This document shows, piece by piece, positions 2,972-9,937 of a stretch of DNA of 17,687 nucleotides. The stretch comes from a virus, in the UHGV virus genome UHGV-0085586. One strand, given 5' to 3'. The first letter of the stretch is position 1; each line of letters opens with the position of its first letter. A program made the translations under genes and the position numbers. The notes below the pieces were generated by a model. It saw only the letters and a list, made by a program, of their open reading frames with translations, searched no databases and was not told the origin of the DNA.

Positions 2972-4368
2972 AATAAACGCTCCATTTTACTGCCCGACAT
3001 GCGGTTATTGCTGTATCTGCGCGGATTGCCCGGCGTCATGGGTGTGGAAAGAACCCGGGCACTCTCCTGGTCCACAGGCAGAAAATGTCCGTTATGAAAA
3101 CGCCGGTAAATGGTCCCGAGCGTGCCATTACGCTGTTTCGTGATGTTGATTTCTGCTATGCCTCTGGCCTGAGTTTCCGGGTTGTATACCTCATCCCTGT
3201 AAAGCATCAGAATGATGTCGGCATCCGCCTCGATTTCCCCGGAGTTTTTCAGGTCCGAGTTCATTGGGCGTTTATTGGGTCTGGATTCCACGCCGCGGGA
3301 GAGCTGGCTCAGAGCAATCAGCGGAAAACCGCCGGATTTTGCCAGGCTTTTAAGTCCCTTTGAGATTTCCCCCACCGCAAGGTCGTGACGCCCCGTGCTG
3401 CGGGTTTTAATCAGGCCGAGGTAATCGACCACCACCAGCGCCGTTTCCGGGTGTTTCATCCGGTGGTGCTTCGTGGTTGCACATATCTCATCAATGGTCA
3501 GGTTTGCCTGGTCCACCATCCAGATATTACGCCCCGTCATTCGTCCCACGCCCTGCGAGAAACGCGCCCAGTCTTCATCTTCAAAACGGGCAACAGACTT
3601 AAGACGGGATACCGGCATTCCACCGGCAGCAGACACCATACGTTCACCAATCTGGATGTTCGCCATCTCCATGGTGAACAGAAGCACGCCATGCCCCTGC
3701 TCAGTCACCTTGTCGATGATGTCCAGCGCAAGTTCGGTTTTCCCCATCGAAGGACGGGCGGCAATGAATACCAGGTCTCCGGGCTCCATACCGCCCGTTT
3801 TTGCGTCCAGTTCATCAATACCGGTCATCAGCGCCCTGGATTTCTCCAGTCCCTGATTGCGGCATTCAACACGGTCGACCACTTCCGGAAGGACATCATC
3901 AATGTGAACCGGCTGAATGACGCCCTTTCCGGTCGACAGTGAGGCCATCATGTTCTGCGCATCCTTCAGGGCATCCTCGGCTGCTTCACAGGTATACGCA
4001 TCACGTAAATTCTGTAATGCTTCAGTCAGTGTTTTTTCTGCATCGCGCAGTGCGGCATTGCGCCGTAACGCTGCGACATAGTGCTCCAGTGAAGACTTCA
4101 CCCAGGTTTTGCGTCCGGTGTCGGTAATCACCGGGGCAAGTTCCGGCATCTCATTGCACAGCAGTACGGGGTCAATGACGCCGGATATGCGAGCCTGTCT
4201 GCAAATCCCCGCGTAAATATCCCGGTACTGACGCACAAAAAATACATCCGCCGGAAGTGTGGTCAGAATATCCATCACTTCCGGATCGGCCCCACGCAGA
4301 AAAAACGCACCGATGACAGCGCCTTCCAGGTCATCGTTACGCCATGCCGGGGTGTTCTGGCTGGTCAT
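2968..4368 (-). CDS. DnaB-family replicative DNA helicase
   Basis: 466 aa; ATG at 4366-4368 (minus) preceded by GGAGGTG. RecA-like C-terminal domain with Walker A-like ARPSMGKTELALD and typical DnaB motifs (GIDELD...GGMEPGDLV..., LSQLSRGVESR). Confidence 0.9.
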   Translation of the reverse strand: MTSQNTPAWRNDDLEGAVIGAFFLRGADPEVMDILTTLPADVFFVRQYRDIYAGICRQARISGVIDPVLLCNEMPELAPVITDTGRKTWVKSSLEHYVAALRRNAALRDAEKTLTEALQNLRDAYTCEAAEDALKDAQNMMASLSTGKGVIQPVHIDDVLPEVVDRVECRNQGLEKSRALMTGIDELDAKTGGMEPGDLVFIAARPSMGKTELALDIIDKVTEQGHGVLLFTMEMANIQIGERMVSAAGGMPVSRLKSVARFEDEDWARFSQGVGRMTGRNIWMVDQANLTIDEICATTKHHRMKHPETALVVVDYLGLIKTRSTGRHDLAVGEISKGLKSLAKSGGFPLIALSQLSRGVESRPNKRPMNSDLKNSGEIEADADIILMLYRDEVYNPETQARGIAEINITKQRNGTLGTIYRRFHNGHFLPVDQESARVLSTPMTPGNPRRYSNNRMSGSKMERLF

Positions 4369-6422: not shown

Positions 6423-6613
6423 GGACGCACCTCCGCCGTAGTTACGTATTTAACCGGGCTACCTTTCATTGAGATGGTTTCACACATCTCTGCCGCTTTC
6501 AGTTCCGCTGTTTTTCTGGATTTATAGCGACGGTGCCAGACAGATACATCCGTGCGAACTGATACATCGTTTCTGTATTCCGTAGTGGAGATGATGATTT
6601 CGTAACTAATCAT
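6419..6613 (-). CDS. Hypothetical small protein (64 aa)
   Basis: ATG at 6611-6613 (minus) preceded by AGGAGG at 7 nt; ATGA overlaps with both neighbours. Confidence 0.55.
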   Translation of the reverse strand: MISYEIIISTTEYRNDVSVRTDVSVWHRRYKSRKTAELKAAEMCETISMKGSPVKYVTTAEVRP

Positions 6614-7173
6614 GGGCGAACCTCCTTGTCAGAACCATTCAGCCTGGAATCAACAAGTGCAGCGCCAAAAACAGCATCACCAACACGGTCGTACAGTTTG
6701 CTAGCCAGCGGAGATTCAACGGCCTTAAGCATTGGATAAAGCTGGCTTGTCCAGATTTGATGGATTTCACGCAAATGCAGGTATACGCCTCTGGCGTTTC
6801 GTGCGACAGCTGACATATCAGACGCATCGGCACCTGATAAACTCTTCTCCATCAGGTTAAAGGCGTTGATGTATGCCTCTTTGAACCGGGCAGCACGTTT
6901 ACCCGTGAAACCCATAGCAAGAAATGCAAAACCGTCTCGTGTGATTTGATAGCAAGGGAGCTTGCGTGTACCACCGTTCGGTTGATTTACCGAAATCGAT
7001 GTCTCCGCAAAATTGCGGGCACAAAACTCAGGGGAACAATCCAGAGTGCGGATCTTTTTCAGCACATCGTCGTGACGCTTGGAGAAGAAGTTGGCAACAG
7101 CCAAAGAAGTGGTAACGGCCTGGCCGTTGTCAATGGTGATTTCAGGTTGAGTGAGGGCTGGGATCGTAGCCAT
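6610..7173 (-). CDS. Rha-family phage regulatory protein (antirepressor-like), copy 3
   Basis: 187 aa from internal ATG at 7171-7173, 8 nt after GGAGG. Rha-type signature begins here (NGQAVTTSLAVANFFSKRHDDVLKKIR...YQITRDGFAFLAMGFTGKRAARFKEAYINAFNLME). The track ORF extends to 7470 through the leader; see findings. Confidence 0.75.
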   Translation of the reverse strand: MATIPALTQPEITIDNGQAVTTSLAVANFFSKRHDDVLKKIRTLDCSPEFCARNFAETSISVNQPNGGTRKLPCYQITRDGFAFLAMGFTGKRAARFKEAYINAFNLMEKSLSGADASDMSAVARNARGVYLHLREIHQIWTSQLYPMLKAVESPLASKLYDRVGDAVFGAALVDSRLNGSDKEVRP

Positions 7174-7470
7174 GATGGCAGCCTCCGTTGACAGTGAAAA
7201 ACTTCCACCACCGGAAACGCCAATTCCACTGGTGGTGAACTGGACGGGGTTGGCGTAACCGGCGTCAACGGAGACCGGCGCACCTTTCGGTGCCCCCGCC
7301 CAGCCCACCATAATCTGGATGTGAGCAAATGCGGACGATAAAAAAGACGCTGGCGCGTCATACATCGCCGTTGACAATTTCAGGACGCCAATCCCGGCAC
7401 CCGCTTTATAAGGTGCCTGAGCAGTGTAACGTCCCGAAATTGCAGAATCAATATGCTGGTGGCGGATCAT
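7174..7470 (-). promoter_or_regulatory. Structured leader copy A (c4-like tripartite RNA element: promoter-like site, terminator hairpin, GNRA hairpin, anti-SD, SD)
   Basis: Minus-strand TTGATT-17-TACACT (plus 7446-7451 / 7423-7428); hairpin gacgcGCCAgcgtc + U6 (plus 7340-7359); GAAA-loop hairpin (7280-7293); GUCAACGG at 7368-7377 and at the SD (7183-7192); complementary CCGUUGAC at 7262-7271. Confidence 0.6.
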
Positions 7471-7829
7471 AGGTGCACCTCCCGTTGATTACGACGGAAC
7501 GCGGAGTGACCCTGGACGGTTTCAGCCTCATGGAATGCTTCAATACAGCTCTCGTAGTACCGCATTGTGCGCAGACTTAACCCAAGCTGAAGCATCATCA
7601 GACCATCAAGGGTGATGTAATAACCACGCAGGGAGTCACCGTAGATGTGATAAGTACCCGGTATGAAATTGCGGGTAAAAAACTCGCGTGAGCAGTTCAG
7701 ATACTCGATTTTGTCAACGATGTTCTGGTGCATGCGCTTGAAATGGCAGGCAACATGCAGGGAGAAAATAACGGCCTTGCCGTTGACGACTTCGATTTTT
7801 AGGAATGGGGAAGTTAGGACAGTAGCCAT
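7467..7829 (-). CDS. Rha-family phage regulatory protein (short, antirepressor-like), copy 2
   Basis: 120 aa from internal ATG at 7827-7829 preceded by the same ACGGAGGCTGCCATC-ATG context as copy 3. Rha-like block (...GKAVIFSLHVACHFKRMHQNIVDKI...YYITLDGLMMLQLG...). Stop overlaps the leader-A ATG at 7470. Confidence 0.7.
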   Translation of the reverse strand: MATVLTSPFLKIEVVNGKAVIFSLHVACHFKRMHQNIVDKIEYLNCSREFFTRNFIPGTYHIYGDSLRGYYITLDGLMMLQLGLSLRTMRYYESCIEAFHEAETVQGHSAFRRNQREVHL

Positions 7830-8129
7830 GATGGCAGCCTCCGTATGCAATGGATAACTTCCACCACCGGAGCTGCGAAACTCATGGGTGGTGAACTGAA
7901 CAGGGTTCGCAGTACCGGCGCATACGGAAACCGGCGAGCCTTTCGGCTCCCCTGCCCAGCCCACCATAATTCTGGCGTGCGTGAGCGCGGACGATAAAAA
8001 AGACGCTGGCGCGTCATATATCGCCGTATGCAATTCCGGGCTGCGACCCCCGGCACCCGCTTTATAAGGTGCAGAGACAGTGTAACGTCCCGAAATTGCA
8101 GAATCAATATTTGGTCTTGAAATGATCAT
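7830..8129 (-). promoter_or_regulatory. Structured leader copy B (paralogous to copy A, altered pairing specificity)
   Basis: Same architecture: promoter-like TTGATT-17-TACACT (plus 8102-8107 / 8079-8084), terminator hairpin + U6 (7996-8015), GAAA hairpin (7936-7949). The three elements read GCAUACGG (8024-8031 and 7841-7848) versus CCGUAUGC (7920-7927). Confidence 0.6.
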
Positions 8130-8213
8130 ATAGCTGCTGATATCTTTAGAACTGTTCTTGGATGTTTCGGAGCCGTTTTATGCGAAACAGCTCCCCGTTA
8201 TTGATGTTGAGTG

Positions 8214-8238
8214 AGCCGGGTTACTCCCGGCTTTTTTT
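8214..8238 (+). terminator. Plus-strand-oriented intrinsic terminator-like hairpin between antirepressor genes (orphan)
   Basis: Stem agccggg (8214-8220) / cccggct (8226-8232), loop ttact, followed by T7 on the plus strand (8232-8238). On the minus strand an A-run precedes it, so it is not a minus-strand terminator. A second hairpin lies at 8168-8195. Confidence 0.4.
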
Positions 8239-8945
8239 CACCGCTGCCAACCAATAACCTGAAATAACCCCATTTTCGGGTGATACCAGCGAGTCCCTCG
8301 CGGTTCTGCTTCCTCCATAACCCGATAAAAAGCAGCCATAAACGGTTCCACAGCAACAATTGCGCGACGTGACAACAATCCGTCCGGCGTCATGAACTCA
8401 TGTGTATCTGTAGGAATTTGATAGGCGTTCACCAGATTGCGGCATTTATCATCTGACAAACCGGTTTTTGCTTTCAGTTGGCGATATCCGGCATAGCCCT
8501 CACGAATAGTGCCCTTTTTAATTTGCTCGACTGTTTCAGCAACGTGGCTGACTTTTTCTTCCACCTGAGTGATCCGTTTCTGTTGGCGAACGGCTTCAAG
8601 AGCCATCGCGGCAACCATTTCGATTTCGCTCATTGGCTTACGGATCTGTTCTTCCAGTTCGCGCCAGCGATCTACCAGGCGAGCTGTGAATTCAGGACAG
8701 AGCTGTGCGACGACAATGATGCTGTCGCGCTTACCTTGTTCACCTTCGAATACATACGCGCTAGAAAATCGGCGAGGCCCAAGTGATTGTTTATTCTCAA
8801 TTTCCACAGTCTGTGGAAATTGGATGATTCCCTTTTTAGCCAGTGTTTCAATAGTTCTCTTAACACTATCTGGTCGGCTTCCCACCAGCTCTGCGATCTC
8901 AACGCTGGTCATGGATGCTTTGCCGTTAAAAATTGCGGTGTTCAT
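8238..8945 (-). CDS. Phage regulatory protein, Rha/antirepressor family with C-terminal extension, copy 1
   Basis: 235 aa; ATG at 8943-8945 (minus), 7 nt after AGGAGA. N-terminal MTSVEIAELVGSRPDSVKRTIETL... and ...VVAQLCPEFTARLVDRWRELEEQ resemble phage antirepressor DNA-binding domains. Confidence 0.75.
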   Translation of the reverse strand: MNTAIFNGKASMTSVEIAELVGSRPDSVKRTIETLAKKGIIQFPQTVEIENKQSLGPRRFSSAYVFEGEQGKRDSIIVVAQLCPEFTARLVDRWRELEEQIRKPMSEIEMVAAMALEAVRQQKRITQVEEKVSHVAETVEQIKKGTIREGYAGYRQLKAKTGLSDDKCRNLVNAYQIPTDTHEFMTPDGLLSRRAIVAVEPFMAAFYRVMEEAEPRGTRWYHPKMGLFQVIGWQR

Positions 8946-9169
8946 TGTTGGTCTCCTGTGGGCTTGTCATCTTCTGTATTCGCTAGACTTGGGTGTGTAT
9001 ATGGAATGCTCGGATCCAGATGACAAAGAATGGCAACATCCTCCGGAACACCTCGCGTTTTCCACTTTCCAACACCTTGACTGCCACGAGGCCTTCCTTT
9101 CTTTGGGAACCTGCGACCAATAGCGGCATTGGTTTTAAATTGAATTTTTAATATTTCATAAAGGGTCAT
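8942..9169 (-). CDS. Small first gene of the early-right operon (Cro position; function unverified)
   Basis: 75 aa; ATG at 9167-9169 (minus); stop overlaps the Rha copy 1 start (ATGA). Basic, partly low-complexity; no clear helix-turn-helix, so the Cro call is positional only. Confidence 0.4.
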   Translation of the reverse strand: MTLYEILKIQFKTNAAIGRRFPKKGRPRGSQGVGKWKTRGVPEDVAILCHLDPSIPYTHPSLANTEDDKPTGDQQ

Positions 9170-9186
9170 TCTTTAGTCTCACACCA

Positions 9187-9258
9187 GATACTTTGTTATC
9201 CAACGATGTTAACCACAGGAATCCAAAGTATCAAGAAATTCTGTTACTTTAGTATCAA
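9187..9258. promoter_or_regulatory. OR-like divergent promoter/operator region between the Cro-position gene and the repressor
   Basis: Three copies of A(A/G)GTATCA: 9187-9195 (inverted), 9226-9233, 9251-9258. Palindrome AAGTATCA-N8-TGTTACTT at 9226-9249. Minus-strand pR candidate TTGATA(9229-9234)-17-TAACAT(9206-9211). Confidence 0.45.
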
Positions 9259-9280
9259 CAACCATGAGAGGAGAAGAAAA

Positions 9281-9937
9281 ATGAAGTCTTTAGGTGAACG
9301 TCTCATCAACGCACGGCAAAAAGCTGGGTTAACACAAGATGCGTTGGCTAAAAAAGCTGGGATCACCAGAGTTGCAATCAGTAAAGCCGAGCAAGGCCTT
9401 ACAAAAAGTTTCAACGGTGACACCCTTTTTAAAGTTGCAGCTGCACTGCGGTGTTCACCGCAGTGGCTTCAGAACGGAGATGAAAAAGATAAGCATTGGG
9501 AAAATAATGTTAAGAGCTGCCCACAGAGAGACACAGCACACTCTTACCCTGTAATTAACTGGGTTCAGGCAGGATTATTCGCAACTTCTGGTGATGACTA
9601 CAACATGTATGATCAGGATAATTGGAGGCATTCTGTAAAATACGCTGGTGAGAGGGGGTTCTGGCTGGAAGTGCACGGAGACTCAATGACTTCGCCCGTA
9701 GGAATAACATTTCCTGAAGGAATGTCGATCCTTGTCAACCCAGATAAAGAAGTTTTTTCAGGGTGTTACGTCATCGCCAGAAAAAAATCCACCAATGAAG
9801 CAACATTCAAAAAATATATTTCTGACATGGGAAAGGCGTTTCTAAAGCCCCTTAATCCACAATATCCAATCATAGAAATGGACAATGATTGCGAAATAGT
9901 AGGTGTTGTGGTTGATGCCAGGTGGGATATTTTCTGA
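9281..9937 (+). CDS. cI-type prophage repressor, HTH-XRE N-domain + S24 (LexA-like) autopeptidase C-domain
   Basis: 218 aa from ATG 9281, after gagaggagaag. HTH (LTQDALAKKAGITRVAISKAEQG); Ala-Gly cleavage site (VQAGLF); Ser nucleophile in GDSM and downstream Lys (ARKKS). The track ORF starts at 9206 in the leader. Confidence 0.9.
   Translation: MKSLGERLINARQKAGLTQDALAKKAGITRVAISKAEQGLTKSFNGDTLFKVAAALRCSPQWLQNGDEKDKHWENNVKSCPQRDTAHSYPVINWVQAGLFATSGDDYNMYDQDNWRHSVKYAGERGFWLEVHGDSMTSPVGITFPEGMSILVNPDKEVFSGCYVIARKKSTNEATFKKYISDMGKAFLKPLNPQYPIIEMDNDCEIVGVVVDARWDIF

Follow-up and report, generated by a model that had tools for sequence, protein, structure and literature searches.

In phage P1, work attributed to Citron and Schuster in 1990 and to Biere et al. 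in 1992 is said to have described a form of translational control in which the a' and b' sequences of the c4 antisense RNA mask a2 and b2 sequences at a ribosome site, with a1 and b1 lying upstream. In P1/P7, RNase P reportedly releases C4 from the leader transcript by processing, an observation credited to Hartmann et al. in 1995. A member of the isrK family is expected to be expressed, to associate with Hfq and to activate downstream translation in trans. The P1/P7 immI c4 antisense RNA (RF01695, with c4-a1b1 as RF03163) is covered by Weinberg et al. (2010, PMC2864571). In the Salmonella prophage Gifsy-1, the short IsrK RNA has been shown experimentally to end at its own terminator, while partial read-through yields an isrK-orf45-anrP transcript that is translationally silent; IsrK acting in trans pairs with the orf45/STnc1160 region and activates translation (Hershko-Shalev et al. 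2016, PMC4825925). The same study describes a processed RNA of about 80 nt, STnc1160, from the orf45 region, and reports that translation of orf45 is required, even though the amino acids it encodes are not conserved. Its authors regarded IsrK as a structural homologue of the SeqA RNA of satellite phage P4 and compared STnc1160 with the P4 CI RNA, which is described there as the P4 immunity factor and as acting by transcription termination (PMC4825925).

The stretch of DNA analyzed here (the window) comprises the 17,687 nt of virus genome UHGV-0085586, and its gene content identifies it as a lambdoid prophage early region. A LexA-like S24 repressor gene lies on the plus strand (9206-9937). On the minus strand, a small gene at the cro position is followed by a gene for a 235-aa HTH/Rha-like protein (8238-8945; a third, weaker Rha-like match of 25.7 bits), by two leader-gene units that we refer to as module B and module A and, 3' of module A, by replication genes (6201-2968), i.e., an HTH_36 replication-initiator-like (O-like) gene, a DnaC-like gene and a DnaB helicase gene. 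The 235-aa gene occupies the cII position and is without an isrK-C4 leader. The two modules are spaced 656 nt apart, and their leaders are 87% identical across about 330 nt. The gene behind leader A (cargo A; 6610..7173, minus strand, ATG at 7173) encodes a Rha-family regulator of 187 aa (Pfam Phage_pRha, 96.3 bits), and that behind leader B (cargo B; 7467..7829, minus strand, ATG at 7829) a short Rha-like protein of 120 aa (Phage_pRha, 30.0 bits), which is 37% identical to cargo A (BLASTP E = 2e-19). The leader has homologues in 315 phage records, Shiga-toxin phages accounting for many of these, and matches to part of the surrounding 3.3-kb region are present in 1354 of 5426 complete E. coli genomes. 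In the nearest E. coli genomes (92-97% identity), the long ORFs are annotated as "ash family protein" and "Rha family phage regulatory protein", and the counterpart ORF of phage SfV carries the label "immunity region".

On the strand opposite to this operon, a promoter-like TTGAAA-18-TATCTT with an upstream TG (8117-8146, plus) is followed by a strong terminator (8213-8233, plus, with a T run), which extends as far as the stop codon of the 235-aa gene. The putative RNA from this region (8117-8240, plus) would be about 90 nt and would lie at the position of lambda OOP; the region has a weak, sub-threshold Rfam match to sroD (24.5 bits).

From the evidence set out below, we consider it very likely that both leaders are RNA switches of the P1 immI, P4 CI and Gifsy-1 IsrK type, each placed ahead of a Rha-family regulator gene. 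An earlier, sequence-only reading of the window had proposed that each leader encodes a minus-strand sRNA of about 75 nt that starts at its own promoter and stops at an intrinsic terminator. When the strand was read and the motifs were located by script, all of those claimed for the two leaders were found in place. An Rfam scan of the window at gathering thresholds (50 bits for isrK, RF01394; 45 bits for C4, RF01695; 46.7 bits for c4-a1b1, RF03163) then returned four full-length matches, two to isrK and two to C4, and the isrK matches, of 77 nt, bore the sRNA proposal out in both copies. isrK-A occupies 7340..7416 (minus; 62.2 bits) and isrK-B 7996..8072 (minus; 58.8 bits), both over model positions 1-77 of 77, with E-values of 1.8e-11 and 1.3e-10.

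The predicted isrK promoter consists, in module A (7423..7451, minus), of a -35 element TTGATT (7451-7446), a 17-nt spacer and a -10 element TACACT (7428-7423); in module B (8079..8107, minus) the same hexamers lie at 8107-8102 and 8084-8079, again 17 nt apart. The isrK model starts 6 nt past the end of the -10 element and ends at the U tract. The putative promoter matches the consensus at only 8 of 12 positions, and a promoter scan with a threshold of 9/12 did not list it; we therefore relied instead on its conservation across 79 homologous modules, in which the T, T and A of the -35 element and the A, A and T of the -10 element are conserved in at least 90%, with a variable spacer. The terminator is GACGC-GCCA-GCGTC followed by six T residues in both copies (7359-7340 in isrK-A, 8015-7996 in isrK-B, minus), i.e., a G+C-rich stem of 5 bp, a 4-nt loop and a U6 tract. 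Both were detected in a terminator scan, which found nine terminator-like sites in 6500-9300, compared with 3.0 +/- 1.8 in shuffled sequences.

Within isrK-A, a 5' hairpin (7416-7397) is followed by b1 (GGGAUUGGCGU, 7395-7385) and a1 (UGUCAACGGCG, 7376-7366); in isrK-B, b1 is GGGGGUCGCAG (8051-8041) and a1 is UUGCAUACGGCG (8033-8022), all on the minus strand. Taken alone, isrK did not fold better than its shuffles (z = -1.2 and -0.9), and the c4-a1b1 model (RF03163) scored below gathering in the window, with 22.5 bits at 7377-7429 and 17.2 bits at 8033-8085. Despite this, a function of a1 and b1 is supported by their complementarity to C4. The sRNA does carry a repeated element, as had been noticed from the sequence; what had been overlooked is that this element is none other than a1/b1, the decoy for the loop of C4.

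The second RNA of each leader is C4, an antisense RNA of 88 nt. C4-A (7228..7315, minus; 81.4 bits) and C4-B (7884..7971, minus; 83.3 bits) both match RF01695 over model positions 1-87 of 87, with E-values of 5.7e-15 and 2e-15. C4-A comprises a closing stem of 17 bp, a GAAA hairpin (7293-7280), a loop containing a' (CUCCGUUGACG, 7273-7263) and a junction containing b' (ACGCCAACCCC, 7256-7246), with a conserved AUG at its 5' end (7311-7309, minus). The corresponding parts of C4-B are a GAAA hairpin at 7949-7936, a' (UUCCGUAUGCG, 7929-7919) and b' (CUGCGAACCCU, 7912-7902). After the stem, the C4 RNA in the window finishes with CACCACCA. The minimum free energy (MFE) fold of C4 is identical to the model structure and is more stable than those of shuffled sequences (z = -5.07 for A and -4.56 for B). 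In the 79 modules the architecture is that of a long closing stem around two hairpins, with 94-100% pairing in helices 5-7, where double-sided changes occur.

The GAAA hairpins are GCACC-GAAA-GGTGC in A (7293-7280) and GAGCC-GAAA-GGCTC in B (7949-7936), two base pairs differing between the copies with both sides changed (C-G to A-U and A-U to G-C). The sequence-only reading had taken these changes as compensatory, and a check of the 79 homologues upheld this, three of the five pairs of the GAAA helix having double-sided changes. It had also argued that the hairpin is selected as RNA rather than as protein, which agrees with the covariation of the C4 helices, with a fold that outperforms shuffles and with a leader that does not display a protein-type substitution pattern (see below). 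The hairpin, although real, is not a separate element, being the first inner hairpin of the 88-nt C4 RNA. More generally, both elements that had been singled out are genuine RNAs, but it had escaped notice that isrK and C4 form one known system: the promoter-terminator unit is IsrK, and both elements and their joint mechanism have already been described.

Downstream of C4, each leader contains sequences b2 and a2, complementary to b' and a' of C4. In module A (7180..7223, minus), b2 is UUGGCGU (7223-7217) and a2 is UGUCAACGGAGGCU (7193-7180), which includes the Shine-Dalgarno sequence GGAG of cargo A; in module B (7836..7879, minus), b2 is UUCGCAG (7879-7873) and a2 is UUGCAUACGGAGGCU (7850-7836), lying over the Shine-Dalgarno sequence. 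The GGAG within a2 sits 7-8 nt ahead of the cargo ATG, and a2 overlies the Shine-Dalgarno sequence in essentially every module of the homologue set. To obtain that set, viral contigs were searched for exact matches to a pattern taken from the conserved 5' strand of C4; this yielded 120 loci and, from these, the 79 distinct modules of 296 nt that were used for covariation.

The internal helices of isrK and C4 were 93.6% paired across the 79 modules, and 12 pairs had double-sided changes. For the pairing of b1 with b' and of a1 with a', the covariation score was 0.464, compared with 0.147 in shuffled alignments and at most 0.106 in slid registers; for the pairing of a' with a2 and of b' with b2 it was 0.451, compared with 0.160 and at most 0.092. 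None of 500 shuffles reached the scores observed for the internal helices or for a and b. Membership of the two RNA families, their structure and all four complementarities, together with their covariation, are direct observations. Cognate partners pair at about 8 of 8 positions for a (8.00 of 8 for a' with a2) and about 7 of 7 for b, whereas between non-cognate classes about 5 of 8 positions pair for a and 4-5 of 7 for b. Across the set there are ten specificity classes of a' and eight of b' (alignment columns 243-250 and 258-264), occurring in 20 combinations. The a and b determinants therefore assort independently and behave like specificity cassettes that can be swapped, which suggests that recombination exchanges them. 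The determinants are b = UUGGCGU and a = GUCAACGG in module A, and b = GUCGCAG (in b1) or UUCGCAG (in b2) and a = GCAUACGG in module B, and the two modules of the window are mutually non-cognate.

A skeptical view would be that a hairpin, a duplicated leader and weak hexamers resembling a promoter have come together by chance, without any RNA function. It could appeal to the promoter match, which is only 8/12, and to the fact that copies A and B are paralogous, so that their shared features are partly inherited. However, Rfam E-values of 1e-10 to 1e-15, covariation at a level never reached by shuffling and the occurrence of the same architecture in three experimentally studied phages effectively refute it, and we regard it as almost certainly wrong.

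Whole-leader folds were also strongly structured (z = -4.7 and -4.8). For the copy B leader, the pairing of b1a1 with a'b' is present in the MFE structure; for copy A, the C4 fold is present in the MFE structure and the pairing of a'b' with b2a2 in the centroid. The low ensemble frequencies of these leader folds are expected of a switch.

The leaders can also be read as protein. When translated, they match Pfam Phage_ASH (PF10554) with 74.9 and 62.7 bits (7141-7428 and 7810-8084, minus), the cut-off being 26. Ash has been treated as a domain of unknown function in the Rha/Ash proteins of Stx phages (PMC8951638), and PF10554 has been used as a profile or marker for P4 epsilon (PMC8628076). A rival explanation, in line with public annotation, would be that the region is simply protein-coding, i.e., the N-terminal "Ash" domain of Ash-Rha fusion proteins, and that the hairpins and complementarities are incidental. 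Besides the Pfam scores, the long ORFs annotated in PGAP and phage records favor this, as does the leader frame itself (7173-7470 and 7829-8129, minus), which was open and in frame with the cargo in all 53 modules of the window lineage. In these 53 modules the cargo frame had no stop sites and the other two frames had 8 and 11 polymorphic ones; equal stop tolerance in the three frames would give a probability of about (2/3)^19, a figure that is indicative only, the sites and sequences being non-independent. Moreover, the ATG at 7470 is preceded by a strong Shine-Dalgarno sequence (GGGAGGUG) and shares bases with the stop codon of the gene before it (ATGA).

The substitution pattern was nevertheless unlike that of a protein. 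In the 53 modules without indels relative to copy A, pN/pS of the leader was 0.70 in frame, close to one of the two off-frame values (0.74 and 1.17); for the short Rha-like cargo, used as a positive control, it was 0.17 in frame compared with 1.35 and 1.67 off frame. For the long Rha cargo the same control gave an uninformative 0.71, an ungapped comparison being invalid for sequences with indels. The leader frame was closed in 26 of the 79 modules, 15-81 nt from the cargo ATG, these 26 carrying different cargo genes, and it is closed also in Gifsy-1 and in the P1-like phage RCS47, yet in all of these the RNA features persist. Where copies A and B differ, the changes are for the most part non-synonymous and preserve pairing. 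Finally, the 47-aa translation of each C4 region by itself still scores about 50 bits to Phage_ASH, and this family is also matched by the obsolete P4 "cI ORF" (L124, 8168-8584), an ORF that overlaps the CI RNA, the P4 immunity factor (PMC4825925). Judging from these sequence comparisons, "Ash" is best read as a translation of the isrK-C4 RNA locus and not as a conserved protein domain, and a purely protein-coding leader is very unlikely.

The open frame in the window lineage still counts against the simplest form of the switch model, which does not need it. One possibility, which we consider rather unlikely, is that the RNA switch is in this lineage also deliberately translated. That orf45 of Gifsy-1 needs translation though its amino acids are unconserved offers a natural reading of the open frame, namely that ribosomes must traverse the leader RNA. 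In the window, ribosomes could initiate at the AUG at 7311, at the 5' end of C4, or in module A also at the ATG at 7470; when an upstream early promoter drives the operon, they might cross the IsrK terminator and C4 into Rha, melting the switch. If the leaders are indeed translated switches, arrays of two or three that differ in a and b would provide a prophage with several independent RNA "immunity channels".

Returning to the switch as such, promoter activity, termination, processing and the direction of regulation can be predicted by analogy with the characterized relatives. Transcription would start from the promoter within the operon, near position 7416 in module A and near 8072 in module B, and most transcripts would end at the intrinsic terminator, producing the 77-nt IsrK with b1 and a1. 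Read-through transcripts would carry the 88-nt C4, which is probably excised as in P1, P4 and Gifsy-1. The a' loop and b' junction of C4 would then pair with a2 and b2 and, because a2 includes the Rha Shine-Dalgarno sequence, block Rha translation; this pairing probably also reduces transcription of downstream genes through polarity. The b1 and a1 sequences of IsrK would be a second, competing partner for the same C4 bases, so that binding of short IsrK to C4, or to C4 as part of the long transcript, may free the ribosome site, as in Gifsy-1.

It is also conceivable that the modules act mainly on transcription, as in P4, with the pairing of C4 to sites on either side of it, upstream and downstream, leading to premature termination, the replication genes (6201-2968) remaining silent in the lysogen and control of Rha translation being secondary. 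The modules lie between the genes at the cro and cII positions and the replication genes, on the same strand, and in P4 the isrK-C4 pair precedes the epsilon-alpha replication operon. In addition, terminator-like hairpins occur just within both cargo genes, 45-70 nt from their starts (7784-7770 and 7104-7091, minus); these may be coincidental, or sites at which termination depends on an antisense RNA, as in P4. However, a2 overlies the Shine-Dalgarno sequence in virtually all modules, an arrangement indicative of translational control, as for P1 and Gifsy-1. The two modes are compatible and not exclusive, since a translational block can cause Rho-dependent polarity, and we view a mainly transcriptional role as somewhat unlikely, if by no means implausible.

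The possibility that cargo A is a homologue of Gifsy-1 AnrP was ruled out (E = 2.1), and P1 has Ant where the cargo here belongs to the Rha family. This counts against a direct transfer of the switch model, in that the downstream biology may differ from that of Ant and AnrP; it also implies that the RNA module is portable and not bound to one protein family. The isrK-C4 module is a portable control cassette. It was also seen ahead of unrelated first genes (loci L011, L012, L022, L074, L095, L113 and others), with N-termini such as MANAQT..., MPGQKI..., MPNLTI..., MTSTLT... and the Icd-like MLATTP....

Two or three C4 copies were present at 14 of 122 loci, mostly with a period of about 656 nt. 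Examples of such tandem arrays are the window itself (7162-8113) and loci L009, with three copies, L048, L027, L067 and L001, among others. Since the two tandem modules of the window differ in a and b, they should operate independently. Co-resident copies always differed in a' or b' (none of about 15 pairs was identical in both), but as about 10% would be expected to be identical by chance, this was not significant.

The practical value of these results is in annotation, leaders of this kind being labeled at present as an "Ash" domain of unknown function. Reading them as RNA switches with exchangeable specificity cassettes offers a testable route to how lysogens hold off Rha-type regulators and, perhaps, the replication genes behind them.

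How closely does the locus resemble the described systems? The order isrK, C4, gene is common to Gifsy-1 (isrK 34316-34240, C4 34214-34131), P4 (isrK-like 8692-8615, C4, i.e., CI RNA, 8507-8420) and RCS47 (isrK 3005-3083, C4 3128-3215, then ant). The window shares with P4 and RCS47 both the stretch from the Shine-Dalgarno sequence to the ATG, GGAGGCUGCCAU(C/U)AUGGCUAC, and the distance of 138 nt from the AUG of C4 to the ATG of the cargo. As in Gifsy-1, where the Rfam feature "a1, b1 targets of C4" overlaps isrK, the window has a 77-nt RNA with a 5' hairpin, predicted to run from its own promoter to an intrinsic terminator, the middle part of which is complementary to the downstream C4/orf45 region; behind it come a C4-like RNA (STnc1160 in Gifsy-1) and a regulator gene, the ribosome site of which would be masked. 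Our ORF analysis reproduced the 45-codon orf45 of Gifsy-1 with its AUGA overlap, whereas its equivalent in the window, starting at the AUG at 7311, lacks a stop codon and continues in frame into the cargo. The window also differs from Gifsy-1 in its Rha-family cargo, unrelated to AnrP, in lying within the early-right operon by the replication genes rather than after a Q-like gene, and in having two tandem modules.

As in P1/P7 immI, the window has a C4 with a' and b' exposed, a1 and b1 upstream, and a2 and b2 over the ribosome site of the first downstream gene. Unlike in those phages, the c4-a1b1 model scores under gathering, and while the cargo of P1 is icd followed by ant, the Rha-family gene of the window starts directly at an icd-like MAT(I/V)P N-terminus. 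With the seqA-seqB-seqC immunity region of P4 the window shares the order of an isrK-like RNA (SeqA) and then C4 (CI), a leader that is open in frame with the first gene, and a position ahead of replication genes; in P4, however, the terminator and CI are about 100 nt further apart, and there is a single module where the window has two. What is locally distinctive, i.e., the Rha-family cargo, the in-frame fusion of the orf45 equivalent and the tandem orthogonal pair, is a set of variations within a known system.
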